From: Candidatus Eiseniibacteriota bacterium | GTDB taxonomy: Bacteria > Eisenbacteria > RBG-16-71-46 > SZUA-252 | Length of the DNA stretch: 64,000 nucleotides | Assembly: GCA_003235575.1 (NCBI GenBank) | Contig: QJVW01000115.1 | Span: 12,290-76,289 of the forward strand | Direction: 5' to 3' | Shown: piece after piece, positions 2,471 through 47,993 of the stretch | Layout: every line of letters starts with the position of its first letter | Numbering within the stretch: the first letter of the stretch is position 1 | Notes under the pieces: model-generated | What the model was told of the DNA's origin: nothing | What the model saw: the letters and a program-made list of their open reading frames with translations, nothing else | Databases searched by the model: none | Made by a program: the position numbers and the translations under genes

Positions 2471-2508
2471 GTGTCCGGAAATTCCGGGGCGAAAGCGGGG
2501 CGGGCGCC

Positions 2509-2739
2509 TTAGGAGGCGGGCGCCGCCGGCTTGGCCTCTTTCATGCCGTACTTCTTGCGGAACCGCTCGATGCGACCGGCGGTATCGACCAGCTTCTGCT
2601 TCCCGGTGAAGAACGGATGACACTGGGAGCAGATTTCGACGTGCATGGCTTCCTTCGTCGTCGCCCGCGTTTCCACGATGTGACCGCAGGCGCAGATGAT
2701 CTGCGTATTGAAGTAGCCGGGGTGAAGGTTCTTCTTCAT
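2509..2739 (-). CDS. rpmE: 50S ribosomal protein L31
   Basis: 76 aa [49 protein letters not shown]; the Zn-ribbon form of L31. Confidence 0.95.
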
Positions 2740-2774
2740 GGGTTGCTCCGCTTCTCCGCGTGGTGGAACGGTGG

Positions 2775-4172
<1,398 letters not shown>

Positions 4173-4337
4173 GACTTGTGCCGAACGGCGGTCCTCTGAG
4201 GGGGTGGCTACGTTTTGAAGGGTTCGCGTTTGTTCCGGTGAGTGTGCTGCCCGGGGTTCGCGGCCCTTAGGGGCATTCGCGCTGGGCTTCGAAGGTCCCC
4301 TTCCGGGCGGGCCTTGTCAGGTTGGTGCGACGAGAGA

Positions 4338-4366
4338 AATCTAGCGGACCAAAGGCGCGGTGTCAA
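4338..4366 (-). promoter_or_regulatory. Candidate sigma70-type promoter for rho (TTGACA-N17-TAGATT on the minus strand), about 160 nt upstream of the rho start
   Basis: The minus strand reads ...gggcTTGACAccgcgcctttggtccgcTAGATTtctctcg. This gives a long leader, consistent with Rho autoregulation. Confidence 0.4.
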
Positions 4367-4369
4367 GCC

Positions 4370-4403
4370 CCGTGGACCGCGGCTGCAAAACAGCCGCGAT
4401 CCA
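4370..4403 (-). other. 12-bp imperfect stem-loop (GTGGA(C/T)CGCGGC / GCCGCG(G/A)TCCAC) immediately 3' of the TPR gene stop and 5' of the rho -35 element
   Basis: Inverted repeat with one mismatch around a tgcaaaaca loop. There is no clear U-tract, so it is not a canonical intrinsic terminator. Confidence 0.3.
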
Positions 4404-4415
4404 CGGTGTTCAATC

Positions 4416-6083
4416 CTACTTGGCCGCGGGCTGGGCGGGGAAGCTGCCCGTGGAGAAGATCTGCCCCCCCATGAACGTCACCGACTTTCCCTTGCCCCAG
4501 TAGAACCAGCTCTCGAAGGACTTCCCATCCTCCCGATGGTTGTAGACCTCGTCCGGATACCCGTCCGCGGCCAGGACCCCGGTCTGCTTGCATCCCTTGC
4601 CAACACGGTTTTCGGCGGAGTCGACCCAGATCTTTAGATCATTTCCCGTCCGCTGCTGGCCGTCCTTCAGGGCCTTGTACATGGCGTATTCGGCGGAGGA
4701 TGCCTCCTTGTTCCCCTTCTTGAGATACGAAAGGAAGAGGAACTGATGCGTTTCCACGTTCTTGGCGTCGATCTCGACGGCGTTTTGCAGGTTCTTGATG
4801 GCGCCGTCGTAGTCCTCGGCGTAGAACTTGGCCTGCCCCGCCAACCCCTGCAAATCCTCGTTCTTGGGGTACTCCAGGAGCCCCTTGTCCAGGATCTGGG
4901 CCGCCTTCTTGTACTGCGACTGATTGCTCGCGATGACCGCGGCGTTGTAGATCGCGGTCTGGCGTTCGTCCTTCGCTTCGGGGGGCGCCAAGTCGTAGAG
5001 GAGACCATAGTTAGCCGAGGCGCTGTCGAAGGCGGCCTTGCGCTCAGGGTTGTCCTTGGCAAGGGGCTCCGCATAGCGCATCCACGACTCGGCGATACGG
5101 TCGAGATAGACGATGCGATTCGTCGTATCGGTCTCCATCGCCGCCCAGTACGCGGGTATCGATTCCTTGTACTTCTTCTCGTTGTAGAGACGGTTGCCAC
5201 GTCCCATCGCCGCGGCGCGGAGGTTCAGGATCAGCTTCTCCTCGTCCTCCTTCTTGGGCTTCAGCGCCAGACCGGCCTTCGCGGCGGCGATGGCGTCGTC
5301 GATGCGCCCCACGCGCTCGTACAGGAACGACAGGTTCATGTGCGCTTCGACGGAGGTCGGATCGACCATGGCCGCCAACTCGAAGTTGTAGACCGACTCC
5401 AGGATTTTCGATGCGCCCTCGTAGTCGGGGAACACGGTCGAATCGGCGACCGCCAACTCGTTCGCCGGATCGCCGCCGAACGGGGTCAGCGACATCTGCG
5501 TCGGTTCGTCTCCTGTCGGCGGGAAGTAATAGGCGGTGTTGTCGTCGAGGTAGTACCAAACCTCGTGCTTGCCGCCGCCCTCGGACCACTTGGCGAAGTC
5601 CGTCGGCGCGCCCTTCTCCGCCTCGAGTTTCGCCTGCGGCGTGCCCTCGGCCATGGTGCGGTCGCTGAGGACCTCGACGTTCCCCGCGCGACTCATCGCC
5701 GCGACGCCCTTGTTGTAGAGCCCGGCCAGCGCCGCGTCGCGATTCTGCTTCATCTCCTTCAGGCGCTTCTTGTCGTCCTGCTCCGTGGCCATCTCGATGC
5801 CGATCTGGAAGGCGGCGCCGGCGGAGCGGTATTGCCGCATTTGGACACGCGCGATCCCGAGCAGGCCGTAGAGCTGCAGGTTGTCCGGCTCTTCCTGACG
5901 CGAACACTCGAGAAAGCGGACCGCCTTGTCCCAGACCTTCTGCTGGACGTACACCTTGCCGCTGGTGAAGCAGAGCCCGGCCATGGCGACGGGAGCCGTA
6001 ACGGCAAGGACCGCAAACAGAGCGGCCGCGGCGAAAAAGACGCGCTTGGGGCGCAGGCTAAGTCGTTGCATTCGTTCCTCCAT
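4416..6083 (-). CDS. Tetratricopeptide-repeat protein with an N-terminal signal peptide
   Basis: 555 aa with signal peptide (RVFFAAAALFAVLAVTAPVAMAG) and multiple TPR-like helical repeats (LQLYGLLGIARVQMRQYRSAGAAFQIGI..., ESIPAYWAAMETD..., AAQILDKGLLEYPKNEDLQGLAGQAKFYAEDYDGAIKNLQNAVEID). Confidence 0.75.
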   Translation of the reverse strand: MEERMQRLSLRPKRVFFAAAALFAVLAVTAPVAMAGLCFTSGKVYVQQKVWDKAVRFLECSRQEEPDNLQLYGLLGIARVQMRQYRSAGAAFQIGIEMATEQDDKKRLKEMKQNRDAALAGLYNKGVAAMSRAGNVEVLSDRTMAEGTPQAKLEAEKGAPTDFAKWSEGGGKHEVWYYLDDNTAYYFPPTGDEPTQMSLTPFGGDPANELAVADSTVFPDYEGASKILESVYNFELAAMVDPTSVEAHMNLSFLYERVGRIDDAIAAAKAGLALKPKKEDEEKLILNLRAAAMGRGNRLYNEKKYKESIPAYWAAMETDTTNRIVYLDRIAESWMRYAEPLAKDNPERKAAFDSASANYGLLYDLAPPEAKDERQTAIYNAAVIASNQSQYKKAAQILDKGLLEYPKNEDLQGLAGQAKFYAEDYDGAIKNLQNAVEIDAKNVETHQFLFLSYLKKGNKEASSAEYAMYKALKDGQQRTGNDLKIWVDSAENRVGKGCKQTGVLAADGYPDEVYNHREDGKSFESWFYWGKGKSVTFMGGQIFSTGSFPAQPAAK

Positions 6084-6218
6084 GAATTGGAATACCCGGA
6101 ACCAGGCCTTCGCGTTCCAGGCTGTTTCGATTCAATCGGTCGGGGGCACCCCTGTCAAGGGCATTCGCCTCGGCCATCCGGGACGAGACGTCCCCATATG
6201 CCATTGTCCGAAAGAGAG

Positions 6219-8252
6219 TTATAGCAGTTGGTGGGGGTCCACGTCGACGGCCCATCGCACGCCGGGAAACCGCTCCTCGCGTAGGCGGGTCAGGGTCCGA
6301 GCAAGCGTTTCACGCAGGGCCGGCCTGGAGACGCTCTTCATCAGGAGATGCCAGCGATGCTCGCCTCGGAGGCGCGCTAGGGGCATCGGAGCGGGGCCTA
6401 GGATCTGGACCGGGCGATCCGCGGCGGCCCGGCTCACCATGCGGCGCACCGCCGCACCGGCGGCTTCCACGCGCTCCAGCGTGCGGCCACGCAGCTCGAT
6501 CTCCACGATGCGGCCGTAGGGGGGATACCTGAGTTCGCGCCGCTCGGCCGCTTCCCGTTCGAAGAACACGGCGTAGTCCTGCGCGGCGGCCGCCCGAAGC
6601 GCCGGACTCGTCGGGTCGAACGACTGCATGATCACCTCCCCCGGAAGATCCCCGCGACCGGCGCGGCCCGCCACCTGCGTCAGCAGCTGAAAGGTCCGCT
6701 CGGCGGAGCGGAAGTCGGGAAGGTAGAGGGACAGGTCGGCCACGATCACGCCGACCAGCGTGACGCCGGGAAAGTCGAACCCCTTCGCGACCATCTGCGT
6801 GCCGAGCAGAAGATCCGTCTCGCGGGCACGAAACGCGCCCAGGATCGCGGACGCGGAGCCGCGTCGGCGAACGGAGTCGAGATCGAGCCGCGCAAGCCGC
6901 GCGGAGGGGAAGAGCGTCGCCACTTCGCGCTCCACCTTCTGGATTCCGAGACCTCCGAACCAGAGATCGACGGCGCCACAGGCGGGGCACCCCGCCGGGA
7001 CCTTTCTCCGAAGTCCGCAATAGTGGCACCGCAGTCCGGCCTCGTCGGCATGGACCGTGAAGGGGACGTCGCAGCGGTCGCAGTGGGCGACGTGACCGCA
7101 GCCGCGGCACTGGAGATACGTCGAGTGACCGCGGCGATTGAGAAATAGGATCCCCTGTTCGCCCCGCTCGAGCGTTCGTCCGATCGCCTCGACGAGGAGC
7201 GGCGTGATGATGCGCGAGACCGTGCTCTTGCCTCCCGCACGCCCGGCCGAGACCGACGAACGCAGATCGGCGAGACGAACCGTCGCCATCGGCCGGCGGT
7301 CCACGCGGTTCGGCAATTCGAGCAGCGCGTAGTCCCCTCGGGTGGCACGCGCGTAGCTTTCGAGGCTGGGCGTGGCGGTGGTCAAGACGACCGCGGAGCG
7401 GCTCCGCTGCGCCCGCACCAGCGCGACGTCGCGCGCGTGATACCGGGGTGATTCGTCCTGCTTGTACGCGCCGTCCTGCTCTTCGTCGATCACGGTCAGG
7501 CGCAGGTCCGGAAACGGAAGGAAGACGGCCGAGCGCGTTCCCACCACCAGATCGAGCGCCCCGTCGGCCGCGGCCCGCCACACGTCGGCGCGCTCGCGCG
7601 CCAGAAGTCCGCTGTGGTAGACCGCCGACCGCTCGAACCCGGCGCGACGAAACGCGTCGAGCGCCTGGGGGGAAAGCGCGATCTCGGGCACGAGGATGAG
7701 CGCCTGGCCGCCGGCCGCGATGGCGTGGCGCGCCGCGTGCAGGTAGACCGCGGTCTTGCCGCTCCCCGTCACCCCGTGGAGCAGGAACGGCGCGAATGAA
7801 GGAGCAGCGATGCCGGCCTCGATCGCCTCCAGCGCGCGGCGCTGATCGTCGTTGAGCGCGGACCGGACTGGCGGCGCCTCGGCGTGCCACCCCTCCTCCT
7901 CGAGGTACGCGGCGCGCGGCGCGCGGCGGCGGAGCCCCGTCGGGGAGGGGGCCGCGGCGTGCAGCACCTCGCCGAGCGAAGCGGCGTAGTAGTCGGCCAC
8001 CCAGCGCGCGAGCGAGAGGATTTCGCCGCTCACGATCAGCCGCGGCTCGGGAATGCCGGCGATGGATCGAATGCGATAGGCGGGGGCGGCGGCGGCCGGT
8101 TCGGCGCCGAGAACCGTGCCCCAGATCTTTCGGGCGCGGACGGGAACGAGGACGCGCAGACCGGGCACAACGGGCTCATCGTCCGGGAGGGCGTACACAA
8201 GGTGCTCGTGGCCGGAGATCGGGACGGGAACGGCGACGCGAACGAGGGGCAT
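6219..8252 (-). CDS. priA: Primosomal protein N' (replication restart helicase PriA)
   Basis: 677 aa with Walker A (GVTGSGKTAVYL), DEEQD helicase motif II, the Cys-rich Zn-binding region (CHYCGLRRKVPAGCPACG) and a C-terminal domain. Confidence 0.95.
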   Translation of the reverse strand: MPLVRVAVPVPISGHEHLVYALPDDEPVVPGLRVLVPVRARKIWGTVLGAEPAAAAPAYRIRSIAGIPEPRLIVSGEILSLARWVADYYAASLGEVLHAAAPSPTGLRRRAPRAAYLEEEGWHAEAPPVRSALNDDQRRALEAIEAGIAAPSFAPFLLHGVTGSGKTAVYLHAARHAIAAGGQALILVPEIALSPQALDAFRRAGFERSAVYHSGLLARERADVWRAAADGALDLVVGTRSAVFLPFPDLRLTVIDEEQDGAYKQDESPRYHARDVALVRAQRSRSAVVLTTATPSLESYARATRGDYALLELPNRVDRRPMATVRLADLRSSVSAGRAGGKSTVSRIITPLLVEAIGRTLERGEQGILFLNRRGHSTYLQCRGCGHVAHCDRCDVPFTVHADEAGLRCHYCGLRRKVPAGCPACGAVDLWFGGLGIQKVEREVATLFPSARLARLDLDSVRRRGSASAILGAFRARETDLLLGTQMVAKGFDFPGVTLVGVIVADLSLYLPDFRSAERTFQLLTQVAGRAGRGDLPGEVIMQSFDPTSPALRAAAAQDYAVFFEREAAERRELRYPPYGRIVEIELRGRTLERVEAAGAAVRRMVSRAAADRPVQILGPAPMPLARLRGEHRWHLLMKSVSRPALRETLARTLTRLREERFPGVRWAVDVDPHQLL

Positions 8253-8535: not shown

Positions 8536-8964
8536 CTACGAGGAGGGCGTGGAGCGCTCCGACACCGTCTGTCCCAGGATGGCGTTGATCCGCTCGACCA
8601 GCTTGCGGGGACTGAACGGCTTCGTGATGTAGTCGTCGGCGCCGACGTCAAAGCCCATCTTCTGGTCGACGTTCCTTCCCTTCGCGGAGAGCAGGATCAC
8701 GGGGACGTTTCGCGTTTCCGGGTTCGACTTGACCGCGCGGCAGACTTCGTAGCCGTCCAGCTTCGGCATCATGATGTCGAGGACGATCAGGTCGGGCTTG
8801 TCGCTGCGCACGCGCTCCAGGGCCTGCTCGCCGTCGAGGGCGGTCAGCACTTCGTAGCCTTCCATCCCCAGGCTGAAGTCGAGAATGTGGACGATGTAGA
8901 TTTCGTCGTCCACGACGAGAATCCGCCCCTTCGACATCGGCTCTCCTCCCGGTACGTGTGCCAT
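8536..8964 (-). CDS. Stand-alone response-regulator receiver domain protein (CheY-like), probably starting at the internal MSKGRILVVDD (about 8937)
   Basis: RILVVDDEIYIVHILDFSL...DLIVLDIMMPKLDGYEVCRAVK...VPVILLSAKG...GADDYITKPF are canonical REC motifs (DD, D, T, K). No output domain. Confidence 0.9.
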   Translation of the reverse strand: MAHVPGGEPMSKGRILVVDDEIYIVHILDFSLGMEGYEVLTALDGEQALERVRSDKPDLIVLDIMMPKLDGYEVCRAVKSNPETRNVPVILLSAKGRNVDQKMGFDVGADDYITKPFSPRKLVERINAILGQTVSERSTPSS

Positions 8965-8972
8965 ACCGATAT

Positions 8973-11564
8973 CTATCGGCCCGCTCCGGATGCTTCTGGA
9001 GTCGGAAACGGTGGCCGATCTTGTTGCGGCACAATCAGTTCAACAAGCGTCGCCACCACGGCCTCATCGAACTGCGTCCCGCTGTGGCACCGCAGTTCCG
9101 CCACCGCCTCCTCGTGGCTGATCGGCTGGCGGTACGGCCGCCCCAGCGTCATCGATTCGTAGGCGTCGACGACGGCGATGATCCGTGCGCCCAAGGGAAT
9201 CTGATCGCCGCGCAATCCGCGCGGATAGCCGCGGCCGTCGATACGCTCGTGGTGCGCCAGAATGATTTCGGTCACGTTGGAGTGGAACTCGATCGGTTTC
9301 AGCAATTCGACGCCGCGGGCCGGATGTTCCGCCACGTGCGCCCAGGTATCGGGATCCAGCTCGCCCGGCTCGTGGAGGATGCCCGGCGATACGTGCGCCA
9401 TGCCGACGTCGTGGATTCGGGCCGCGTACGCCAGCACCGAGAGGTCCTGTTCGTTCATGCCCATCTTCCGGCCGATCGCCGTCGCGCGCTCCGCCATCGA
9501 GCCGCCCGTCAGGCGCAGGCGGCTTCGGCGGGTGTGGTCGATGATGGCCGCCAGCGCGTGGGAGGCCTGCTCCGCCCGGTCGGCGGACGCCTCGTGCGCC
9601 GAGGCATGTTCCCAGGCGCGCGCGACCCGATCCGCCAGCGACGTCAGGAGCGCCTCGTCGTCCTGCGTGAACGGGGTGCAGGAGATCTTGTTGTTGATGT
9701 TGATGACGCCCACGACCCGCTCATCCACCTTCACCGGGACGGACAGGAGCGACTTCGTTTCGTACTGGTTGTGGTTTCGTCGTCCGAACCGCTCGTCGTC
9801 TTCGATGTTGGTGATCAGGAGCGGCTGGCCGTGCTTGGCCACCCATCCCGCGATCGAATCGCCGACACGGATCCGCGTGCCGCAAACCACCTCTTCGCGC
9901 AGTCCGCGCGCGGCCTTGATGTAGAGCTCCTCCCGCTCGTCGTCGAGGAGCATGAACGACGCGATCTGGGCGTCCATCACTTCGGCGACCATCTCGACCG
10001 TGAGACGGGTCAGGTGATCGGACACCGAACGCGTCGGGGACCATGTCGCGTGGGTGATCACGTTGGCGTCGCTGGGCGTGGCCGGCAGGGAGACGTGGAA
10101 GCGGGAGCCGTGCCCCGGCTCGCTTTCCGCCGTGATCTCGCCCCCGTGCCACTCGACGATGCTCTTCGCGATCGAAAGCCCGAGCCCGACACCGGGGTAC
10201 TCGCGCGACAGCGAGCCGTCCACCTGGTAGAAGCGGTCGAACACCTTGGCCAGCTCACTCTGCGGAATGCCGATGCCGGTGTCCTCGACCGTCAGGCGCA
10301 CGGTGCTTCCCTCGCCCGCCACGCGGAACGTCGCCGTCCCGCCGCGCGGGGTGAACGTCACCGCGTTCGTTCCCAGGTTCTGCAGCAGCCGGCGAATCAG
10401 ATTCCGGTCCGCCTCGACGATCACCTCCGAGACGTCGATCGCCGCGACGAGCTGGATTCCCTTCGATTCCGCCTGGGGCTTGAGGATCGCGATCTCCTCC
10501 TCGACCAGATCGACCAGGTTCAAGGGCTCGCGGCTCATGCGGAAGCGTCCCGACTCGAGCCGCGTCAGTTCGAGGATCGCCTCGATGAGGCGGGTCAATT
10601 TCCGGGTCTGCTCGTCGATCACGCCCAGGAAGTCGCGCTGCATCGCGGTGTTCTTCGAACCAACGTGCTGTTGCAGCGCCTCGACGTACGCGTGAATGTG
10701 CGTCAGCGGGGTCTTCAACTCGTGCGAGACGGTGGAGACGAACTTGGACTTCATTTCGTTCAGCTCCTCCGCGCGCTCCGTCGCCTCCTCCAGCTGGCCC
10801 ATGCTCTCCTGCAGCCGCTGGACGAGGGCCGCGTTTTCGAGGGCGACCACCGCGTGGGTCGCCAGGATCTCGATCATCTCGACGACCTCGCGCGTGGGAA
10901 GCTTTCGGTCGGCGGGGTCGTCCACCGAGAGATACCCGATCACGGCGCCGTCCTTGCCCGACAGCGGCACGATCAGCACATCCTCTTGGTGCCACTCGCC
11001 GTCGCGCCGGACGCCGAGGTCGGGCGTCCAGCTGTGCGGGTCGTTCTCCCCCCAGAACTTGTGCTCGTGTGGGATGAAGTAGGAGCGGCCGATGCGGAAT
11101 TCCTCGCGCAGCCACGATTCGAACTCGGACGCCGGGACGTCGTAGTTCTCGAGCGCCGTGATCGCGTCGCGCTCCAGCCCCGCGAAGGCCCGCGCCTCGT
11201 AGGTTCCACTTCGAACGTTCAGCACGCGAAGCAGGACGATGCGGTAGCCGACCGCGGAGGTCACGGCGTGCACGATTTCGTGCAGCACCCGATCCAGGCC
11301 CAGGTTCGAGCTGATGGATGTTGCGATTTCCAACACCTTCTGGAGCCTGGTCGCGCGCTGCCGGCTGGTGAGGAGTTGGTCGCGGTAGAGACGCCCCATC
11401 TCCTCGGCGGCCAGCGACAGCTGCTCGTTGCGCTGCATCGCGGCGTCCAGCGAGCCGCGCAGGCGCCGCGCTTCGCGCATGGCGGTCCGACGGCGGCGGA
11501 CGGCCTCGAAGAGAAGGAGCGCCGCGGCCGCGAGCGCCCAGGAGAGCGCGTGGCCGGTCGTCAT
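8973..11564 (-). CDS. Hybrid sensor: TM-GAF-HisKA-HATPase_c-GAF-HD-GYP (histidine kinase fused to a c-di-GMP phosphodiesterase-type domain), paralog 1
   Basis: N-terminal TM segment; H-box VSTVSHELKTPLTHI; N-box RRLLQNLGTNAVTFT; G1 VEDTGIGIP; G2 GVGLGLSIAKSIVEWHGGEI; two GAF-like regions; C-terminal HD-GYP (RIHDVGM ... ILAHHERIDGRGYPRGLRGDQIPLGARIIAVVDAYESM). Confidence 0.9.
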   Translation of the reverse strand: MTTGHALSWALAAAALLLFEAVRRRRTAMREARRLRGSLDAAMQRNEQLSLAAEEMGRLYRDQLLTSRQRATRLQKVLEIATSISSNLGLDRVLHEIVHAVTSAVGYRIVLLRVLNVRSGTYEARAFAGLERDAITALENYDVPASEFESWLREEFRIGRSYFIPHEHKFWGENDPHSWTPDLGVRRDGEWHQEDVLIVPLSGKDGAVIGYLSVDDPADRKLPTREVVEMIEILATHAVVALENAALVQRLQESMGQLEEATERAEELNEMKSKFVSTVSHELKTPLTHIHAYVEALQQHVGSKNTAMQRDFLGVIDEQTRKLTRLIEAILELTRLESGRFRMSREPLNLVDLVEEEIAILKPQAESKGIQLVAAIDVSEVIVEADRNLIRRLLQNLGTNAVTFTPRGGTATFRVAGEGSTVRLTVEDTGIGIPQSELAKVFDRFYQVDGSLSREYPGVGLGLSIAKSIVEWHGGEITAESEPGHGSRFHVSLPATPSDANVITHATWSPTRSVSDHLTRLTVEMVAEVMDAQIASFMLLDDEREELYIKAARGLREEVVCGTRIRVGDSIAGWVAKHGQPLLITNIEDDERFGRRNHNQYETKSLLSVPVKVDERVVGVININNKISCTPFTQDDEALLTSLADRVARAWEHASAHEASADRAEQASHALAAIIDHTRRSRLRLTGGSMAERATAIGRKMGMNEQDLSVLAYAARIHDVGMAHVSPGILHEPGELDPDTWAHVAEHPARGVELLKPIEFHSNVTEIILAHHERIDGRGYPRGLRGDQIPLGARIIAVVDAYESMTLGRPYRQPISHEEAVAELRCHSGTQFDEAVVATLVELIVPQQDRPPFPTPEASGAGR

Positions 11565-13948
11565 GGCGTCACGCCCTCCGTGCGCCCGGTCGGGCGCGCG
11601 GCGCCGGTCGACGGCGGGCGCGCGTCCCCGGCCTCGTCCAGCGCGGCCGCCAGCGCTTCGACGACGTTCGGATCGAACTGCGTCCCGGAGGCGCGGCGGA
11701 GTTCCGCCAGCGCTTCGGCGTCGGAGACGGGATCGCGGTACGGACGTCCCGCGGTCAGCGCCTCGAAGGCATCGACGGCGGCGAGGATGCGCGCCGCCAG
11801 GGGGATTTCCTCCCCGCGCAAGCCGCGTGGATATCCCTCGCCGTCCATCCGCTCGTGATGGGCCAAGATGATCTCGTGCACCTTGGGCGCCGACTCCAAC
11901 GGACGCAGCAGCCGGATGCTCGATTGGGGATGGCTTTCCACGTCACGGCGCTCCCGCTCGCTCCACACCTGGCTGCTGCACCAGGGCGCATTCTCCAAGG
12001 TGAGCATGCCCACGTCGTGCACGCGCGCGATGTAGCCGAGGATGGCGATCTCGTCCTCGGGCAGGGACAGGCGGCGCGCCACGTCGGTGGCCAGCTTGAA
12101 CGAGCGGCGCGTGTTGGGAATCAGCCGCTGACGGCGCGCCCGGATCACCGCCCGGAGGCTGGAGAGGGTCGCGGCGATGTCCGCCTCGGTCGGCTGATGG
12201 TGCAGACGCTCCAGCGCGGCCGAGACGCGCGCCACGATCGCGACCAGCAGCCGGAGGTCGTCCTCGTCGAACGGCAGCCCGTCGGACTTGTTGTTCACGT
12301 TGACGACGCCGACCGTCTCCCCGGCGATGAGGATCGGCGCGGCCAGCAGCGATTTCGTCTCGTACTGCGGGTGGCTCATCTTCCGGAATCGCCGGCTGCT
12401 CTCGATGTCCCGGACCAACAGCGGTTCACCGTGGTGCGCCACCCAGCCCGCGATGGAATCCCCGACGCGCACCTGCGTCCGGGCCACGGTGTCGGGGTCG
12501 AGGCCGTGCGCCGCTTGGACCCGAAGGCTCGTGCCGGTCTCGTCGAGGAACATGAAGGACACAATTCCCGCGTCCATGACCTCGGCGACCATGGTGACGC
12601 ACTGCTGCAGCACGTTCCGGCGCTCCGGCTGAACGAAGAGCGGCTCCAGCGAGCGAATGAGCCTGAGGAAGCCGTGCTGATGGAGCGGCAGTTCGAAGAC
12701 GAACCGCGTTCCTCGGCCGACCTCGCTCTCGACGTGGATCGCGCCTCCATGCAGCTCGACCACGCTCTTCACGATCGCGAGTCCTAGCCCGGTCCCCTCG
12801 GTCCGCGCCCCACCGCCGTCCTCCACGCGGTAGAAGCGCTCGAAGACGTGGGGCAGCTTTTCGGTCGGAATGCCGTGGCCCTGGTCCTCCACCTCGAAGC
12901 GCGCCTGGTCGCCATGCATGGCGACACGCACGAAGATCTCGCGATCCTCCGGCGAGAACTTCGCGGCGTTATGGAGCAGGTTCACGAACACCTGCTTCAG
13001 GAGATCGAAGTCCGCTTCTACCGGCGGCAGGTCGTCCGAGACGGTCACGCGCAGCTGGAGCCGCTTCTGTTGCAGCGTGGGCTCCACCGTGAGGCGCGCG
13101 TCCTCGACGACCGCGGGGATCCCGAGGGGCTCGACGCGAAGACGGCGCCGGCCGGAGTCCATCCGGCTCAAGTCGAGCACATCGTTCACCATGCGGGTGA
13201 GACGGTCCGCCTCTTCATTGATGACGGAGAGGAACTTCTCCTGCATGTCGAAGGACGGCCGACCCAGGTTGTCGAGCAGCGATTCCGTGTAGGCCTTGAT
13301 CGCGGTGAGCGGCGTCCGCATCTCGTGCGAGACGACGGAGATGAGATCCGACTTCGTCTGGTCCATGCGCCGGAGCGCGAGTCGCGCCTCGTCCAGGCTG
13401 CGCGCGGACGCGTGGAGTTCCTCGCGCACGCGAAGGCGATCGACCGCCATGCCGATTTGATCGGCCAGGAACAGTAGGGTGCGGCGGCGGCGGCTGGTCA
13501 CCGGGCGGGCGCGCCGATACCCGACCACCGTCAGGCCCAGGAGGGTCGTGCCGATCCGGAGGGGCATTCCGACCAGCGTCGCGGGGGCGTCCCCGCTCCA
13601 TCCGATCTCGTCGGGTCCCGCCCGCGACGCGTCGGACGCTTCGTGCGCGAGAAACGTCTCGTGGCGAAGCACCTGCCCCAGAAATCCGTCCTGATCGGGC
13701 ACCAGGAGCACGCGGCGCCCGCCCGCGCGATCGCGTTCGTACGCGTAGCCCTCCAGATCGCCCGACTCGTCGTTCAGCAGGAGCAGCGCGAACTGGTCGG
13801 CGCCGGCGATGTCGAGGACGTGCTCCGCCAGGGCGTGAAAGACGGTGTCGGGATCCGTGGCGGCCTGAAGCGCGAAGGAGAGGCTGCCCAGCCGATCAAG
13901 AACGCGGAACGGCGTCGCGGTGCCGCGCGGCGCGTCAGACCCATTCAT
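11561..13948 (-). CDS. Hybrid sensor: GAF-HisKA-HATPase_c-GAF-HD-GYP, paralog 2 (tandem duplicate of the previous gene)
   Basis: H-box VVSHEMRTPLTAI; G1 VEDQGHGIP; G2 GTGLGLAIVKSVVELHGGAI; second GAF; HD-GYP (RVHDVGM ... ILAHHERMDGEGYPRGLRGEEIPLAARILAAVDAFEALT). Its stop overlaps the downstream paralog's start by 4 nt. Confidence 0.9.
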   Translation of the reverse strand: MNGSDAPRGTATPFRVLDRLGSLSFALQAATDPDTVFHALAEHVLDIAGADQFALLLLNDESGDLEGYAYERDRAGGRRVLLVPDQDGFLGQVLRHETFLAHEASDASRAGPDEIGWSGDAPATLVGMPLRIGTTLLGLTVVGYRRARPVTSRRRRTLLFLADQIGMAVDRLRVREELHASARSLDEARLALRRMDQTKSDLISVVSHEMRTPLTAIKAYTESLLDNLGRPSFDMQEKFLSVINEEADRLTRMVNDVLDLSRMDSGRRRLRVEPLGIPAVVEDARLTVEPTLQQKRLQLRVTVSDDLPPVEADFDLLKQVFVNLLHNAAKFSPEDREIFVRVAMHGDQARFEVEDQGHGIPTEKLPHVFERFYRVEDGGGARTEGTGLGLAIVKSVVELHGGAIHVESEVGRGTRFVFELPLHQHGFLRLIRSLEPLFVQPERRNVLQQCVTMVAEVMDAGIVSFMFLDETGTSLRVQAAHGLDPDTVARTQVRVGDSIAGWVAHHGEPLLVRDIESSRRFRKMSHPQYETKSLLAAPILIAGETVGVVNVNNKSDGLPFDEDDLRLLVAIVARVSAALERLHHQPTEADIAATLSSLRAVIRARRQRLIPNTRRSFKLATDVARRLSLPEDEIAILGYIARVHDVGMLTLENAPWCSSQVWSERERRDVESHPQSSIRLLRPLESAPKVHEIILAHHERMDGEGYPRGLRGEEIPLAARILAAVDAFEALTAGRPYRDPVSDAEALAELRRASGTQFDPNVVEALAAALDEAGDARPPSTGAARPTGRTEGVTP

Positions 13949-14955
13949 GCGCGTGGCTCCGTGCGATGCGATTCCCTTGCCGGACCGACAAGCGTCCCGT
14001 CCGACCGGCGATCCGGCACGATGCAGCTGCCGTGGATGGCTTTTCCCAGCTTCTTGAGTTCCCTGACGATGTCGTTGACCTGCGCGCTGTGCTGGATGTC
14101 GCGGCCGACGTTCGTCACGACGGGGATCGTCACCGAGAGAAGACCGAAGTTCTTCACCCCACCCTGACGGTTCGAGAGCACCGTGATGAACCCGCGCTCG
14201 GCGTCTTCCGGGTCGTACTGACTCGCAATGTTGCTGTCGAACTCGCGCTTCACGCAGTCGGCCACCAGGCCCGCCCGATCCGGGACGGTCATGATCACGA
14301 AATCGTCGCCGCCGATGTGGCCGACGAAGTCCCCTCCTCCACCGACCTTCTCCACGGCTCGGCCCAGGAGCTCCGCCGTGAATTGGATCAGCGCATCGCC
14401 CCGTGCGTATCCGTAGTAGTCATTGAACGCCTTGAAATTGTCGAGATCGATATGGAGAAAGGCGAACTTCTCACCCGCTCCGATGCGCCGCGTCAGTTCG
14501 TTTTCGATGAGCACGTTTCCGGGAAGGCCGGTCAGCGCGTTCGACGAGAGCAGCGCGCGGCGGCTCCGGAGCTGGTTGCGAACGCGAAACAGGACCTCCT
14601 CGTTCGCGAACGGTTTGGTCACGTAGTCGTCCCCGAACGCGTTCAGTCCCTCGAGGCGCTCCTCCAGCGATGATCTGGCCGTGAGGAAGATCACGGGAAT
14701 GCGGCTGGTCAGGGGGTTCGCCTTCAGGCGGCGGCAGACTTCGTACCCATCCATGCGCGGCATCGCCACGTCGAGCAGGATGAGATCGGGGGGATCGCGT
14801 CGAACCTCCTCCAGCGCGCTCAGTCCGTCGGCGGCGGTGCGAACGTCGTAGTTCGCGTCCGCCGCTCCGCGCAGTGCCTGCTCCAAGAGGAGGCGAATGT
14901 GCAACTCGTCCTCCACCACCAGAATGCGCCCGCGATCAGCCGGCTGCTCGCTCAC
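13945..14955 (-). CDS. Response regulator REC-GGDEF (diguanylate-cyclase-type domain with the variant motif GGDDF), with a likely GTG start at about 14955
   Basis: REC: RILVVEDELHIRLL...DLILLDVAMPRMDGYEVCRRLK...DDYVTKPF. GGDEF domain: FLHIDLDNFKAFNDYYGYARGD...GHIGGDDFVIM. The track ORF extends to 15201 through an Arg-rich implausible N-terminus. No RxxD I-site precedes GGDDF. Confidence 0.8.
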   Translation of the reverse strand: MSEQPADRGRILVVEDELHIRLLLEQALRGAADANYDVRTAADGLSALEEVRRDPPDLILLDVAMPRMDGYEVCRRLKANPLTSRIPVIFLTARSSLEERLEGLNAFGDDYVTKPFANEEVLFRVRNQLRSRRALLSSNALTGLPGNVLIENELTRRIGAGEKFAFLHIDLDNFKAFNDYYGYARGDALIQFTAELLGRAVEKVGGGGDFVGHIGGDDFVIMTVPDRAGLVADCVKREFDSNIASQYDPEDAERGFITVLSNRQGGVKNFGLLSVTIPVVTNVGRDIQHSAQVNDIVRELKKLGKAIHGSCIVPDRRSDGTLVGPARESHRTEPRA

Positions 14956-15119: not shown

Positions 15120-16133
15120 CTAGGCGTGGGGAAAGGCGTCGAGGTTCGGAACGACCGACGCCGTCACGGGCGTGACGATGCCGCGACGCCGCGCGTGCCA
15201 CCCGGCGAAGGCGATCATCGCGCCGTTGTCACGGCAAAGGGCCGGCGAGGGAAATACGGCGGGGATGCCGCGTTCGCCCGCGAGCCGGCCGGCCTCGCGG
15301 CGAAGCAAGGTGTTGCAGGCGCAGCCGCCGGCGATGGCGATCGCCTTCGAGGGGTGTCGGTCGAGCGCGAGCGCCAGGCGCTCGATCAGCGCGTTCACCA
15401 CCGCGCGCTCCGTGGCGGCAGCCACATCGCGAATTCGCCCCTCGGACATCGGGCTCTTCTCCCGTTCCACCGCGAGTTTCACGGCGGTCTTGAGCCCGCT
15501 GAAGCTGACGTCCAGGTTGTCGTTGCCGAGCCGCGCCACCGGAAACGCGAACGCGTCGGGGTTTCCCTCGCGCGCGAGCCGGTCGACGTGCGGACCGCCG
15601 GGATACGGCAGGCCGAGCAGCTTCCCGACCTTGTCGAACGCCTCGCCGGCGGCGTCGTCGCGCGTCGATCCCAGGCGCCGGACGGATGCCGCATCCGTGA
15701 CGTGGTAGATCTCGGTATGTCCGCCCGATGCGACCATCCCCAGATATGGAAACGGCAGGTCCTGCTCGATGCCGGGCGAAAGAAGATGCGCCTCGACGTG
15801 GTTCACGCCGACGAAGGGTATGCCGCGCGCTTGGGCGAAGCCCTTCGCGAATTCGAGCCCGACGAGGAGCGAACCGACCAACCCCGGCCCGATCGTCGCG
15901 GCCACGGCGTCGATCGCGGCGATGGGGCGATCCGCCTTCGCGAAGACCTCGGCGATCACGCGAGGAAGGAGCGTCAGATGGGCGCGCGAAGCGAACTCGG
16001 GCACGACGCCGCCGTATTCGAGGTGGATGTCCTGCGAGGCGACGACGTGCGCGAGCAGCCGGCCATCTTCCACGATGCCGGCGGCGGTGTCGTCACAGGA
16101 GGTTTCGATCCCGAGGATGAGCATGGGTATCAA
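15120..16133 (-). CDS. tsaD: tRNA N6-adenosine threonylcarbamoyltransferase TsaD (Kae1/Gcp family)
   Basis: MIPMLILGIETSCDDTAAGIV...HVEAHLL...GGCACNTLLR; metal-binding HxxH and ASKH-fold motifs. TTG start. Confidence 0.9.
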   Translation of the reverse strand: MIPMLILGIETSCDDTAAGIVEDGRLLAHVVASQDIHLEYGGVVPEFASRAHLTLLPRVIAEVFAKADRPIAAIDAVAATIGPGLVGSLLVGLEFAKGFAQARGIPFVGVNHVEAHLLSPGIEQDLPFPYLGMVASGGHTEIYHVTDAASVRRLGSTRDDAAGEAFDKVGKLLGLPYPGGPHVDRLAREGNPDAFAFPVARLGNDNLDVSFSGLKTAVKLAVEREKSPMSEGRIRDVAAATERAVVNALIERLALALDRHPSKAIAIAGGCACNTLLRREAGRLAGERGIPAVFPSPALCRDNGAMIAFAGWHARRRGIVTPVTASVVPNLDAFPHA

Positions 16134-16166
16134 TGGTAGCGCAGGCGATTCGCCAGGTGGGGCGGT

Positions 16167-16730
16167 ATGCTGATGGGACCGATGGCTTCCCGAATGTTCC
16201 CGTTCCTTCCGCCGCTCGCCGCGGCCCTCCTGGCTCTCGGCTCTGCCACGGCGGCATACGCGACGCCGATGCCGCTTCGCTTCGACGGCACCGAGCGTGC
16301 CCGCATCGCGGCGCCCGACGTCGACCGCCGGTCGGTCACGGGCACGCTATCCGGTGCTGCCGGCGACACGGTGCTCCTTCTCGCCGGGCCCCGCGAGCTC
16401 CGAATCCCGGTCCGTCAGGTGGTGCGGTTCGAGCGAAGCCGCGGGATGCGCACGACGCGTAGCCGGGGTGTGGTGACGGGCCTCGTGGTCGGCGCCCTCG
16501 CGGGCATGGCCCTGAGTGCAGGGAAAGCGTCTCGTCCGACGTGGAGTCGTCTCGGTCCCGCCGTGATCTTGCTGGGCGGGGCCGCAGGCGGCGGCATCGT
16601 GGGGGCGCTGGTGGGAGGCGCCCTGACAACGGAGCGCGAAGCGGAGTCATGGGAACGAATACCCTTGGACCGACTCCGAGCCGATTTGGCGTCGCACGCA
16701 GCCGCGGAGGTGATCGATTCCGAGCAGTAG
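16167..16730 (+). CDS. Hypothetical exported/membrane protein (signal peptide plus Gly/Ala-rich hydrophobic C-terminal segments)
   Basis: Signal peptide MASRMFPFLPPLAAALLALGSATAAYA, then VVGALAGMALSAG and LLGGAAGGGIVGALVGGAL. Its amino-acid composition is not antisense-like, and it lies in the divergent tsaD/atpC intergenic region. No recognisable family. Confidence 0.45.
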   Translation: MLMGPMASRMFPFLPPLAAALLALGSATAAYATPMPLRFDGTERARIAAPDVDRRSVTGTLSGAAGDTVLLLAGPRELRIPVRQVVRFERSRGMRTTRSRGVVTGLVVGALAGMALSAGKASRPTWSRLGPAVILLGGAAGGGIVGALVGGALTTEREAESWERIPLDRLRADLASHAAAEVIDSEQ

Positions 16731-16851
16731 AGCGGGGCGCCCGAGGCGCGCGGGATCCAGCGCCATTCGCGCCGTCCGGGAGCGGGGAGCCATCCCCGTC
16801 GGCGCCTGACTCACGAAGCCGGAGGGGATGGCTCCCCGCTTCCGGACCCCG

Positions 16852-17280
16852 CTACGCTCGTTCGCTGATCGCCGCGGCCAGTCGGTTCTTCGCGCGTTCC
16901 AGCGCCCGCATCGCGCGCTCGCGGTCGATGGGTTCGTCGCCGCCGGCGCCGTCGTTCTGCAGCCGCTGCTGGGCCCGTTGGAGCGCCGACTTCGCGCGTT
17001 CCACGTCGATCGCGCCCGCGACCTCGGCCGCATCGGCCAGCACCGTCGCCCGATTTCCCGATACCTCCAGAAAGCCGCCGCTCACGGCGTAGAACGAACG
17101 CTTCCCCTCTTCGTCGCGGACTTCGAGACGGCCGGGGCGGAGCGAGGTGATCAGCGGGGCGTGATGGGCCAGGACTCCCAGGTACCCCTCGGAGCCCGGC
17201 GCCTGCAGCGCGGTCACGGGCGCCTCGAGCAGCAGGCGCTGCGGCGTCACCAGGCGGAACGTGAAGGTCGTCTCGGCCAT
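16852..17280 (-). CDS. atpC: F1Fo ATP synthase epsilon subunit; the real start is the internal MAETTFTF
   Basis: MAETTFTFRLVTPQRLLLEAPVTALQAPGSEGYLGVLAHHAPLITSLRPGRLEVRDEEG...; the N-terminal beta-sandwich plus C-terminal helices of epsilon. Confidence 0.9.
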   Translation of the reverse strand: MAETTFTFRLVTPQRLLLEAPVTALQAPGSEGYLGVLAHHAPLITSLRPGRLEVRDEEGKRSFYAVSGGFLEVSGNRATVLADAAEVAGAIDVERAKSALQRAQQRLQNDGAGGDEPIDRERAMRALERAKNRLAAAISERA

Positions 17281-17303
17281 CGCTGCGTCGCGGGAGGCTC
17301 GGC

Positions 17304-18752
<1,449 letters not shown>

Positions 18753-19604
18753 TTACTTGAGCGCCTCGGCGCCTGCCACGATCTCGACGAGTTCGCGGGT
18801 GATCGTGGCTTGCCGGGTCCGATTCATGTGCAGGGTCAGGTTCTGGATCATTTCGTTCGCGTTCTTCGTCGCCGATCCCATCGCCACCATGCGCGCGCCG
18901 TGCTCCGACGCCGCCGATTCGGCCATCGCCATGTAGAGGCGCATGGCCAGGACGTAGGGGACGAGCCGCTCGAGGATCACCTCCGGCGACGGCTCGTACA
19001 GGTAGTCGCGGGAGACCGCCGGTCCCGTCGCCGTCCGCCCCATCGGAAGGTACGGCTCGACCACGATCGTGCGATTCAGCGCGCTCTTGAAATGCGTGTA
19101 GACGAGGTCCACTTCATCGATCTCGCCGGCCTCGAAGCGCTCCGCCAGCGTGCGGCTCATCTCCTCCGCGAATTTCCACGAGGCCACGCCGCCCATCGAC
19201 GTGTTCGAGGCGAGGATGGTGGCCTTCCGTCGGCGGAAGTAGTCGTATCCCTTCTTGCCGATCAGCACCATCGAGGTAGGCACAGACGCCTCGCGTACGA
19301 TGCCCTCGACCATCTTGTTCAGGTTCACGTTGAAGGCGCCGCAAAGGCCGCGATCCGACGTGACGTGCACGATCGCACGGCGCTTCACGTCCCGGCGCGC
19401 GAACGCCGGGTGCATGATCTCTCCCGACGCGTTGGCCAGGTTCCCCAGCACCTCGCGCAGCTGCTCGCCGTACGGGCGCGCGGACTCCACGGCGGTCTGG
19501 GCGCGGCGCAACTTCGCCGCGGAGACCATCTCCATGGTCTTCGTGATCTGGGCCGTGCTCGCTACGGAGCGGATCCGGCGCCGGATGTCGCGAAGGGTCG
19601 CCAC
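18753..19604 (-). CDS. atpG: F1 ATP synthase gamma subunit
   Basis: MATLRDIRRRIRSVASTAQITKTMEMVSAAKLRRAQ; canonical gamma N- and C-terminal helices. Confidence 0.95.
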   Translation of the reverse strand: MATLRDIRRRIRSVASTAQITKTMEMVSAAKLRRAQTAVESARPYGEQLREVLGNLANASGEIMHPAFARRDVKRRAIVHVTSDRGLCGAFNVNLNKMVEGIVREASVPTSMVLIGKKGYDYFRRRKATILASNTSMGGVASWKFAEEMSRTLAERFEAGEIDEVDLVYTHFKSALNRTIVVEPYLPMGRTATGPAVSRDYLYEPSPEVILERLVPYVLAMRLYMAMAESAASEHGARMVAMGSATKNANEMIQNLTLHMNRTRQATITRELVEIVAGAEALK

Positions 19605-19608
19605 GTCG

Positions 19609-21129
19609 CTAGGCCATTCCCTTCTTCACGAAGGCGGCCTTGAACTGCTCCACGGCCTTCTTCAGCTTCGCCTCGATCGCGTCGGTCATTTCGTACTTGG
19701 CGCGGATGTCGTGCATCATGTCGCCGAATTCCTCGTCGAGGAACGCGAAGAAGCCGGTCTCGAACGCCCGGACCGAGGTCGTCGGCAGATCGTCGAGGTA
19801 GCCGTTCGTTCCGGCGTAGATGATGGCGACCTGTCGCTCCACCGACATCGGCTGGTATTGCCCCTGCTTCAGGAGTTCCACCATGCGCTCTCCGCGCGTC
19901 AGCTGCGCCTGCGTGGCCTTGTCGAGGTCCGAGCCGAACTGCGCGAAGGCCGCCAACTCGCGATACTGCGCGAGGTCGAGCCGGAGGCGTCCGGCGACTT
20001 TCTTCATGGCCTTCGTCTGCGCCTTGCCACCGACGCGCGAAACCGAAATACCGACGTTGATGGCGGGCCGCACGCCCGAGTAGAAGAGGTCGGTTTCCAG
20101 GAAGATCTGCCCGTCCGTGATCGAGATGACGTTCGTCGGAATGTACGCCGACACGTCGCCCGCCTGCGTCTCGATGATCGGAAGCGCGGTCAGCGACCCG
20201 GCGCCCAGCGAATCGTTCAGCTTCGCGGCGCGCTCCAGGAGGCGGGAGTGGAGATAGAACACGTCCCCCGGGAAGGCTTCGCGGCCCGGCGGCCGCCGGA
20301 GCAGCAGCGACAGCTGTCGGTACGACGCGGCGTGCTTCGACAGATCGTCGTAGATCACGAGCGCGTGCCCGCCGCGGTCCCGAACGTCCTCGCCGATGGC
20401 GCAGCCGGTGAAGGGCGCGATGAACTGAAGCGGCGCGGCTTCCGAGGCGCCCGCGTTGACGACCGTCGTGTATTCCATGGCGCCGTGGTCTTCCAGGATC
20501 TTCACGACCTTCGCGATCGTGAAGTCCTTCTGGCCGATGGCCACGTAGATGCAGCGGATGTCCCCGCCCTTCTGGTTGAGGATCGTGTCCACCGCGACCG
20601 CGGTCTTCCCCGTCTGGCGGTCCCCGATGATGAGCTCGCGCTGGCCCCGCCCGATCGGAATCATCGAATCGATGGCCTTCAATCCGGTCTGAACGGGCTG
20701 ATTCACGGGCTGACGATCCACGACGCCCGGAGCGCGGCCTTCGATCGGGTTGTACTTGTCCGTGACGATGGGGCCCTTGCCGTCGATCGGCTGGCCGATC
20801 GCGTTGATCACGCGCCCGGCCATCGCGTCCCCGACGGGCACCGAGGCGAGGCGCCCGGTGCGGCGCACCTCGTCGCCCTGCTTGATCTGTTCGGTGGAGC
20901 CGAAGAGCGCGATCCCGACGTTGTCCTCTTCGAGGTTCAGCACGACGCCGGTGACGTCGCCGGGAAAGAGCACCAACTCGCCGGCCATCGCGTCGTCGAG
21001 GCCCCACACGCGGGCGATCCCGTCGCCCACCTGGAGCACCGTCCCGACGCTCTCCATCTTGAGCCGGGACTCGTACCGCTCGAGCTCCTGCTCCAGTACC
21101 GCGCTGACTTCCTCGGGCTTGAACGCCAT
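19609..21129 (-). CDS. atpA: F1 ATP synthase alpha subunit
   Basis: 506 aa with the P-loop [20 protein letters not shown] and the alpha signature regions. Confidence 0.97.

Positions 21130-45466: not shown

Positions 45467-47993
<2,527 letters not shown>

Follow-up and report, generated by a model that had tools for sequence, protein, structure and literature searches.

Two histidine kinases with GAF-HD-GYP modules of altered active site in a conserved signalling operon of Candidatus Eisenbacteria

The subject of this study is a signalling operon of four genes on contig QJVW01000115.1 of a Candidatus Eiseniibacteriota bacterium, within a stretch of 64,000 nucleotides that was analysed as a whole and is called the window here. 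All four genes are located on the minus strand in the order REC-GGDDF, HK-A, HK-B and single REC. The two central genes encode histidine kinases (HK) with a C-terminal GAF-HD-GYP module; they are framed by a response regulator, whose receiver (REC) is joined to a GGDEF-type domain with the motif GGDDF, and by a stand-alone receiver. The four genes are a conserved signalling operon of an uncultured lineage, which is Candidatus Eisenbacteria according to most of the closest homologs. The interpretation that we prefer, with some hesitation, is that of a two-component/cyclic di-GMP (c-di-GMP) module, in which the HD-GYP domains would mainly sense c-di-GMP, hydrolyse it slowly at most and feed back on the attached kinase; we do not think that they serve as a fast phosphodiesterase output.

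Open reading frames (ORFs) and Pfam searches agree that HK-A (795 amino acids, aa; 11561..13948, minus strand) and HK-B (863 aa; 8973..11564, minus strand) each combine a kinase with an HD-GYP domain and lack a receiver, as had been proposed from the letters alone in an earlier annotation, the sequence-only reading. Both contain, from the N terminus, a GAF stretch with a weak match, HisKA, HATPase_c, a second GAF domain with a strong match (GAF2) and HD_5/HD, with scores far above the gathering thresholds. Pfam gave no match to Response_reg in either protein, and neither is thus a hybrid kinase with a receiver in the same chain. The soluble HK-A starts with a GAF-like sensor (residues 13-150; 13499..13912; Pfam GAF/GAF_2) that is modelled as an alpha/beta GAF-like fold with a predicted local distance difference test (pLDDT) score of about 80-90. 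It is followed by a signalling helix, HisKA (13151..13354; E = 4e-21) with the phospho-acceptor H208 in SHEMRTPL, HATPase_c with N, G1, F and G2 boxes (12680..13012; E = 3.9e-32), GAF2 (residues 444-581; 12206..12619; GAF_2 E = 3e-28) and HD-GYP (residues 598-770; 11639..12157; HD_5 E = 9.4e-35), all on the minus strand. HK-B begins with a hydrophobic helix, LSWALAAAALLLFEAV and then RRRR (11499..11549, minus strand), which is kept in its orthologs and leads via a coiled coil and a GAF domain to HisKA (10548..10754; E = 2.7e-17) with the phospho-acceptor H281 in SHELKTPL, HATPase_c (10077..10409; E = 3.7e-29; boxes invariant), GAF2 (9612..10016; GAF E = 3.9e-29 and PDB sequence search) and HD-GYP (9057..9536; HD_5 E = 2.9e-34 and alignments to solved structures), again all on the minus strand. 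The hydrophobic segment has a mean Kyte-Doolittle value for 19-mers below 1.6 in the window copy and of 1.98 in the related locus L002; it may be a membrane anchor, though it is short for a transmembrane helix. Sequence searches of the N-terminal GAF domains against the PDB returned no informative match.

The AlphaFold2 model of HK-A (mean pLDDT 79) shows the GAF-like fold, a helix of 75 residues running into the hairpin of the dimerisation and histidine phosphotransfer (DHp) domain, the catalytic and ATP-binding (CA) domain, GAF2 and a helical HD-GYP domain. With Foldseek the kinase core was matched to HK853 and WalK (YycG) at TMt values (template modelling score) of 0.77-0.90 and 36-38% identity over DHp and CA, and also to the CusS core; the input and C-terminal domains of these kinases are unrelated to those of HK-A and HK-B. 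The C-terminal half aligns over 362-367 columns to the entire GAF-HD-GYP phosphodiesterase PmGH of Persephonella marina (PDB 4MCW). These matches allow each protein to be described as a GAF-kinase joined to a PmGH-like module. In an alignment of 36 sequences from both paralogs, the H box SHE[ML][RK]TPL, the N box, G1 (DxGxGI), the F box and G2 (GxGLGL) are invariant, and the same is true for 118 HK-B orthologs, all of which (118/118) have H281. The invariant positions of HK-A are H208, E209, T212 and P213, N323/N327, D355xGxG359, F369..F372 and G385xGxG389. The histidine, glutamate, threonine and proline of the H box, including the ExxT phosphatase motif, do not vary in any of the sets of 36, 114 and 118 sequences. 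The claim of the sequence-only reading that the H, N, G1 and G2 boxes are intact is thereby borne out, and the cores are not degenerate. Judged by these residues, HK-A and HK-B are predicted to be orthodox, catalytically competent HisKA-type kinase/phosphatases. The best NCBIfam scores were those of PnpS, WalK and PhoR, all of them below threshold, hence both proteins belong to the generic HisKA class and are not orthologs of a named kinase.

GAF2 occupies the slot in which hybrid kinases of this kind have their receiver. A hidden receiver between CA and HD-GYP was considered and rejected, given that Pfam, the model and the PDB sequence search all identify the segment as a well-supported GAF domain. 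Since GAF2 replaces the receiver, phosphoryl transfer cannot directly control the HD-GYP domain of HK-A or HK-B. In the model, a helix (562-606) links GAF2 (444-581) to HD-GYP, which is the PmGH-type layout of a GAF domain and a helical linker. The nearest solved GAF domains of HK-B GAF2 by sequence are 5w10, which we take to be the GAF domain of Lcd1, CyaB2, PmGH as the third-best match, and the phosphodiesterases PDE5/6/2/10. Cyclic AMP (cAMP)-responsive GAF domains have been described in Lcd1 (GAF-GGDEF) and Tlr0485 (GAF-HD-GYP). The cyclic-nucleotide-binding NKFDE motif was examined as a candidate and discarded: HK-B of the window does read NK-x5-F-x3-DE, yet neither family conserves the DE at its end, and no conserved cyclic-nucleotide binding signature was found in GAF2 of the HK-A and HK-B families. 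By sequence, GAF2 comes nearest to GAF domains of cyclases and of cyclic-nucleotide phosphodiesterases. A cyclic-nucleotide input to the C-terminal module would be possible.

The HD-GYP domains are unmistakable members of their family. HK-A retains H644 D645, H673, H697 H698 E699, G705 Y706 P707, D726 and R735xYR738, and HK-B retains H718 D719, H747, H771 H772 E773, G779 Y780 P781, D800 and R809xYR812. The Pfam HD_5 scores are about 119-120 bits against a cut-off of 27 bits, and both proteins have the HD dyad and HHExx(D/N)GxGYP that define PROSITE PS51832. The HD dyad, the next histidine, HHExxDGxGYP, the terminal aspartate and RxYR are invariant in 114 HK-A and 118 HK-B orthologs. The GYP signature named by the sequence-only reading is thus present, and the alternative of a generic HD hydrolase fails. 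In terms of PmGH, they retain H221, D222, H250, H276, H277, D305, GYP and R314, with a conservative change of K317 to arginine. PmGH is free-standing, unlike the kinase-fused module of HK-A and HK-B, which has no counterparts of D183, E185, H189 and K225.

These losses concern the part of the active site on which catalysis depends in PmGH. Profile alignments to 5z7c and 9rbz place N612 of HK-A and T686 of HK-B opposite H189, the first metal-binding histidine. In the HK-A model N612 opens helix 613-626, matching the position of H189 at the beginning of helix alpha-6 of PmGH. The corresponding column contains serine, glycine, threonine or asparagine, never histidine, in the 114 HK-A orthologs and mostly threonine or asparagine in the 118 HK-B orthologs. 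The metal-ligand set H...HD...H...HH...D is hence incomplete, with the first histidine replaced and the other six ligands present. The lysine of HDxGK (K225 in PmGH) is methionine without exception (114/114 and 118/118 orthologs), corresponding to M648 in HK-A and M722 in HK-B. The columns of D183 and E185 are occupied in HK-A orthologs by arginine and by arginine, tyrosine or histidine, respectively. The KPG motif reads EPG in HK-B and S-S/A-R in HK-A, while RxYR is invariant in both families; KPG holds the second base, and RxY[K/R] has been tied to specificity for c-di-GMP and its variant RxxQ/N to that for cyclic GMP-AMP (cGAMP). In PDB sequence searches the domain scores best with the cGAMP-specific V-cGAP3 (5z7c), and DvhD of Desulfovibrio vulgaris comes second (E of about 3e-34 with the family profile). 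In PmGH, the exchanges H189A, K225A and D183A essentially abolish hydrolysis, which mutants of GYP, R314 and K317 do not, and one metal is left in the EDTA-treated complex with c-di-GMP, the G-site iron beside the GYP tyrosine (PMC4159591). All HD-GYP proteins reported as active are di- or trinuclear. With the equivalents of H189 and K225 missing, it is unsafe to label these domains as c-di-GMP phosphodiesterases; of the earlier description as a phosphodiesterase-type domain, the family assignment stands on its intact motifs, but the enzymatic implication does not follow.

The altered site is not a peculiarity of the window. Among the best 150 representatives at 50% identity, about 49 combine the kinase H box with HD-GYP. 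In all of them the lysine position is occupied by methionine, leucine, isoleucine or valine, the first histidine is absent in nearly all, and many have YD for HD; they keep the equivalents of D222, H250, H276, H277, D305, GYP and RxxR. The fetched loci contain about 51 HD-GYP domains outside the fused family, 48 of them with HDxGK and most of those also with the first histidine in gH..RV. Multi-GAF HD-GYP proteins without a kinase from the same hit list are fully canonical. A neighbour-joining tree of 126 HD-GYP domains, computed as a rough, unrooted split test with the three diagnostic columns masked, contains one split with 62 of the 67 non-lysine domains on one side and 57 of the 59 lysine domains on the other. 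On the basis of the residue states and this split, the receiver-less kinase-fused HD-GYP domains look like a single subfamily: their classical H...HD...D metal site appears to be eroding, whereas the second site and the contacts to the nucleotide are preserved. A metagenome-assembled genome (MAG) of Candidatus Aminicenantes (L007, 5527-8130) encodes HisKA-HATPase_c-REC-HD-GYP in one chain and has the canonical first histidine and HDxGK lysine. Kinase fusion alone is consequently not coupled to the altered site, which is restricted to the receiver-less, GAF-linked clade. A few HD-GYP domains with HDxGM that the H-box pattern does not flag as kinase-fused occur in MAGs of Thermotogaceae (L067) and Omnitrophota (L043), and at least one of them keeps the first histidine. 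They fall outside the main non-lysine split, so that the change from lysine to methionine possibly arose more than once.

The first gene of the operon encodes the REC-GGDDF response regulator (336 aa; 13945..14955, minus strand), with Pfam matches to Response_reg (E = 2e-27) and, restricted to profile positions 5-87, to GGDEF (E = 1.2e-14). Its start is a GTG at 14955 behind the purine run GGGGGA, and its length fits that of the orthologs (326-341 aa; L001 6982-8004, L002 4367-5392, L005 2686-3672, L085 5169-6149, L087 2942-3874); an ORF of 418 aa from 15201 is over-extended by comparison with them. The receiver has the acidic pocket, the acceptor aspartate, threonine and lysine. Like PleD, WspR and DgcR, the protein combines REC with a GGDEF-type domain and the motif DxDxFKxxND..G...GD, but it differs from them in the GGDDF motif, in the lack of an RxxD inhibitory site and in a C-terminal half outside the Pfam match. 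The output domain aligns to PleD and DgcR, with GGDDF opposite GGEEF of PleD, and DLDNFKAFNDYYGYARGD aligns to PleD DIDFFKKINDTFGHDIGD, so that the metal-binding aspartate and the guanine-recognising asparagine and aspartate (PleD N335, D344) are present. The canonical motif [G/A/S]G[D/E]E[F/Y] is replaced by GGDDF in the window and five other lineages, and GGDDF, (R/K)GD and the lack of the RxxD I-site are conserved together in all six. The sole GGDDF enzyme reported as active is GSU1937, a cGAMP-producing Hypr GGDEF protein (PMC8835794), which makes a cyclase activity of REC-GGDDF plausible but unproven. The final gene, 35 nt downstream of HK-B, encodes a CheY-like single-domain receiver (133 aa; 8536..8937, minus strand; Response_reg E = 2.9e-30). 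Its start MSKGRILVV agrees with orthologs of 133 aa, and the ATG chosen by the ORF finder at 8964 would add nine residues that they lack. Judged by eye, the single REC seems far more conserved than either kinase, with scattered differences to L001 and L002. Both receiver genes had been overlooked by the sequence-only reading and are the likely partner receivers of HK-A and HK-B.

The structure of the genes, their domains and residue states, their conservation and their synteny are established by the data; from them we infer the following scheme, of which the phosphotransfer partners, the activity of the GGDDF cyclase, the binding of c-di-GMP and the direction of the feedback are the conjectural parts. 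HK-A and HK-B would each read a different signal via their own N-terminal GAF domain and pass phosphate to the flanking receivers, REC-GGDDF and single REC. The phosphorylated PleD/WspR-like GGDDF protein would then probably make c-di-GMP, and the C-terminal GAF-HD-GYP module could close the loop on the same polypeptide, with the binding of c-di-GMP acting as feedback on the balance of kinase and phosphatase. HD-GYP should still bind c-di-GMP because one full metal site (the equivalents of D222, H250, H276 and H277), the GYP tyrosine and RxYR are kept, and it probably hydrolyses the nucleotide poorly or never because the equivalents of H189 and K225 are lost. A precedent is DvhD, an HD-GYP fold with an impaired metal centre that acts as a pure c-di-GMP receptor and whose stalk helices move upon binding. 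Several observations weigh against this interpretation. Five metal ligands and the glutamate of HHE are invariant in more than 230 sequences, a degree of conservation that one meets more often in enzymes than in pure receptors; DvhD has lost both HD and HH. RpfG of Xanthomonas campestris likewise lacks the H189 equivalent (PMC4159591), and the close RpfG of Lysobacter has been reported to hydrolyse c-di-GMP robustly; in view of this RpfG-type activity the loss of H189 alone is no proof of inactivity. In the GGDDF protein the Pfam GGDEF match is limited to the first half of the profile, and it is possible that this protein is not a cyclase. The kinases have been assigned to their receivers by gene adjacency only.

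The strongest competitor, a possible though somewhat doubtful scenario, is that HK-A and HK-B are bifunctional enzymes with a kinase and an active HD-GYP phosphodiesterase, which would exert push-pull control over the phosphorylation of the GGDDF cyclase and the degradation of c-di-GMP. It accounts well for the high HD_5 scores and for the invariance of HD, H, HHE, D, GYP and RxYR in more than 230 sequences, and it can draw on the reported activity of RpfG-type proteins without the first histidine, on HD-superfamily cyclic-nucleotide phosphodiesterases, in which few protein ligands can suffice for a second metal (PMC8177086), and on the GAF-HD-GYP protein Tlr0485 with its cAMP response. It sits uneasily with the replacement of the H189 and K225 equivalents, each needed in PmGH, with the additional absence of those of D183 and E185, and with distant kinase-fused members that have tyrosine for the histidine of HD while the putative c-di-GMP contacts are fixed. 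This pattern fits one metal site that is eroding under selection for binding, not for catalysis.

An altered site might also reflect a changed substrate, and HD-GYP could act on or sense another nucleotide such as 3'3'-cGAMP, pGpG or a product specific to the GGDDF enzyme. The cGAMP-specific V-cGAP3 as best PDB match, the cGAMP-producing Hypr GGDEF as sole known active GGDDF enzyme and the second-base motif KPG, which is EPG in HK-B and absent in HK-A, point in this direction. We nevertheless regard it as improbable: the GGDDF protein has aspartate at the position of PleD D344, within (R/K)GD, and not the serine that marks Hypr enzymes, and RxYR matches the c-di-GMP-linked RxY[K/R], not the cGAMP-linked RxxQ/N. 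Equally little probability is given to HD-GYP as mainly a protein docking module, whose invariant GYP loop would bring the GGDDF regulator, or a different GGDEF protein, to the kinase, as reported for the interaction of Xanthomonas RpfG with GGDEF proteins (RpfG also lacks the first histidine): a GGDEF-type gene is always located directly upstream in the loci L001-L005, L085 and L087, but the strict conservation of four histidines, two aspartates and RxYR would be left unexplained, and no extra docking domain is needed where the receiver already docks on DHp, as in orthodox systems.

The c-di-GMP-sensing interpretation can be extended to a bolder one, which we consider unlikely as a whole. The receiver-less kinase-fused HD-GYP domains would then be a subfamily of single origin that was turned into a metal-assisted c-di-GMP receptor switching its kinase, and together with the GGDDF cyclase and the single receiver they would make up a feedback oscillator or a bistable switch that is complete in itself, maintained as a core operon beside priA across the candidate phylum.

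Several known systems share parts of this design. Kinases of Caulobacter, namely ShkA and CckA, are set by c-di-GMP that is bound C-terminal to or within the catalytic core, with PleD (REC-GGDEF) in the circuit; the binding site is located in a pseudo-receiver in ShkA and in the CA domain in CckA, and not in an HD-GYP domain. HK-A and HK-B may resemble them in concept, by analogy, and ShkA (6qrj) was found as a fold match of the kinase core only. In RpfC/RpfG and in the hybrid HisKA-HATPase-REC-HD-GYP protein of L007, a kinase is likewise coupled to an HD-GYP output. RpfG-type systems and L007 have a receiver between the kinase and HD-GYP, in a separate REC-HD-GYP gene or in the same chain, whereas HK-A and HK-B have a GAF domain there and no REC. 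DvhD (PAS-HD-GYP-like; 9RBZ/9RC0) shows the HD-GYP fold with an impaired metal site behind a dimerising stalk helix and binds c-di-GMP without hydrolysis. It has lost HD (now SQ) and HH (now MN) and kept the first histidine and the lysine, which is the reverse of the state in HK-A and HK-B.

The tandem arrangement of HK-A and HK-B had been taken as a sign of recent divergence of their sensory inputs. The 4-nt overlaps of stop and start codons are real and read ATGA in the DNA at both junctions, REC-GGDDF/HK-A and HK-A/HK-B. The paralogs align end to end with 38% identity (E = 2e-152), and the N-terminal GAF regions indeed differ most, with an identity of 22% in the domain-by-domain alignment; the highest values were found for GAF2 (48%) and HD-GYP, at 47-48%. 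The inferred recency is refuted by the identity matrix of the window, L001 and L002 lineages, in which HK-A orthologs share 56-59% and HK-B orthologs 65-70%, but HK-A and HK-B only 36-37% in each of the three genomes. Moreover, the same block is present in relatives with only about 35% identity (L005, L085 and L087). HK-A and HK-B are ancient paralogs, and the A/B split is older than the sampled lineages. A number of surface positions of DHp, including the HK853 specificity positions H+15, H+38 and H+41, are fixed within each family and differ between A and B, which would fit, without proving, separate partner preferences.

The conservation of the operon structure corroborates this picture. 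A block of REC-GGDEF, two kinase-GAF-HD-GYP genes, single REC and priA recurs in L001 (a contig of 811 kb), in the soil metagenome contigs L002-L004 and in the three distant relatives. A single REC is found in the equivalent position in L001-L005, L085, L087 and L088, the last of which contains one such kinase only, flanked by two receivers. In the window, the operon lies between two groups of minus-strand genes, with tsaD and the ATP synthase operon at 15120-21129 and with priA, a TPR gene, rho and a DUF1385 gene at 1589-8252; their order is kept around the operon in L001, L005, L085 and L087. This retention of housekeeping gene order in relatives documents that the signalling block is part of the stable chromosomal core and not an island.

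The distribution of the fusion qualifies the earlier claim of a rare architecture. The text of the HD-GYP census by Galperin and Chou, taken apart from its Table 3 and supplementary tables, where the architecture may be given, names as partners of HD-GYP the REC, GAF, PAS and DUF3391 domains and membrane sensors, and is silent on fusions to a kinase. Among the matches listed in a scan of species-representative genomes, most loci with both halves have a kinase beside a separate REC-HD-GYP gene; the receiver-less fusion is found in L005 and L006 only, and L007 is the REC-containing variant. Metagenomes, by contrast, yielded more than 115 HK-A and more than 120 HK-B ortholog clusters with the full architecture (more than 230 in total), and most of the named clusters are called Candidatus Eisenbacteria. 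Judged by contigs of equal length in the two ortholog sets, about 35 contigs seem to encode HK-A and HK-B together. Rarity thus applies to bacteria at large, and not to this extensive and conserved metagenomic family: the fusion is uncommon across bacteria and standard in the Candidatus Eisenbacteria-type lineage.

The component domains are all known, and automatic annotation already assigns names such as 'histidine kinase/HD-GYP' or 'HD domain-containing phosphohydrolase'. As an old, conserved and already annotated family and not a recent duplication, the system is less exotic than it first appeared. It is also more specific: its kinase-fused HD-GYP domains constitute a subfamily of their own, with an altered active site and a place in a conserved operon. 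Three features are apparently undescribed, namely the GAF domain that replaces the receiver between kinase and HD-GYP, the altered active site common to the examined receiver-less fusions, and the combination of two such kinases with a GGDDF regulator and a single receiver as a deeply conserved operon of an uncultured lineage. If HD-GYP is a c-di-GMP sensor, the proteins add c-di-GMP-controlled kinases of a new type and show a second way, unlike that of DvhD, in which an HD-GYP domain can become a receptor; if it is active, H189 and K225 are dispensable for catalysis and the accepted ligand set has to be revised. Either way, metagenomic counts of 'HD-GYP phosphodiesterases' should handle the kinase-fused clade separately.

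The composition of the operon varies in some of the relatives. L005 (3720-4550) and L085 (6171-7004) contain an additional minimal kinase of 276-277 aa, which consists of HisKA and HATPase_c only, is devoid of a sensor and follows the REC-GGDDF gene, ahead of the first large kinase; the window has no such gene. Both kinase-GAF-HD-GYP proteins of L005 (4561-7554 and 7564-10755) start with several hydrophobic stretches resembling a multi-pass membrane domain. Compared with the window, the input domains seem to have been exchanged while the kinase-GAF-HD-GYP core was retained.

A search with Rfam at the gathering threshold over the whole 64-kb window detected no riboswitch or other RNA upstream of the operon, and a scan for promoters and terminators gave nothing exceeding chance. 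The sole Rfam match in the window at this threshold is a tRNA gene (47919-47990, plus strand). An ORF of 966 aa on the opposite strand (8958-11858, plus strand) faces HK-B and HK-A; most likely it is one of the shadow ORFs that are common in DNA with 66-70% G+C.

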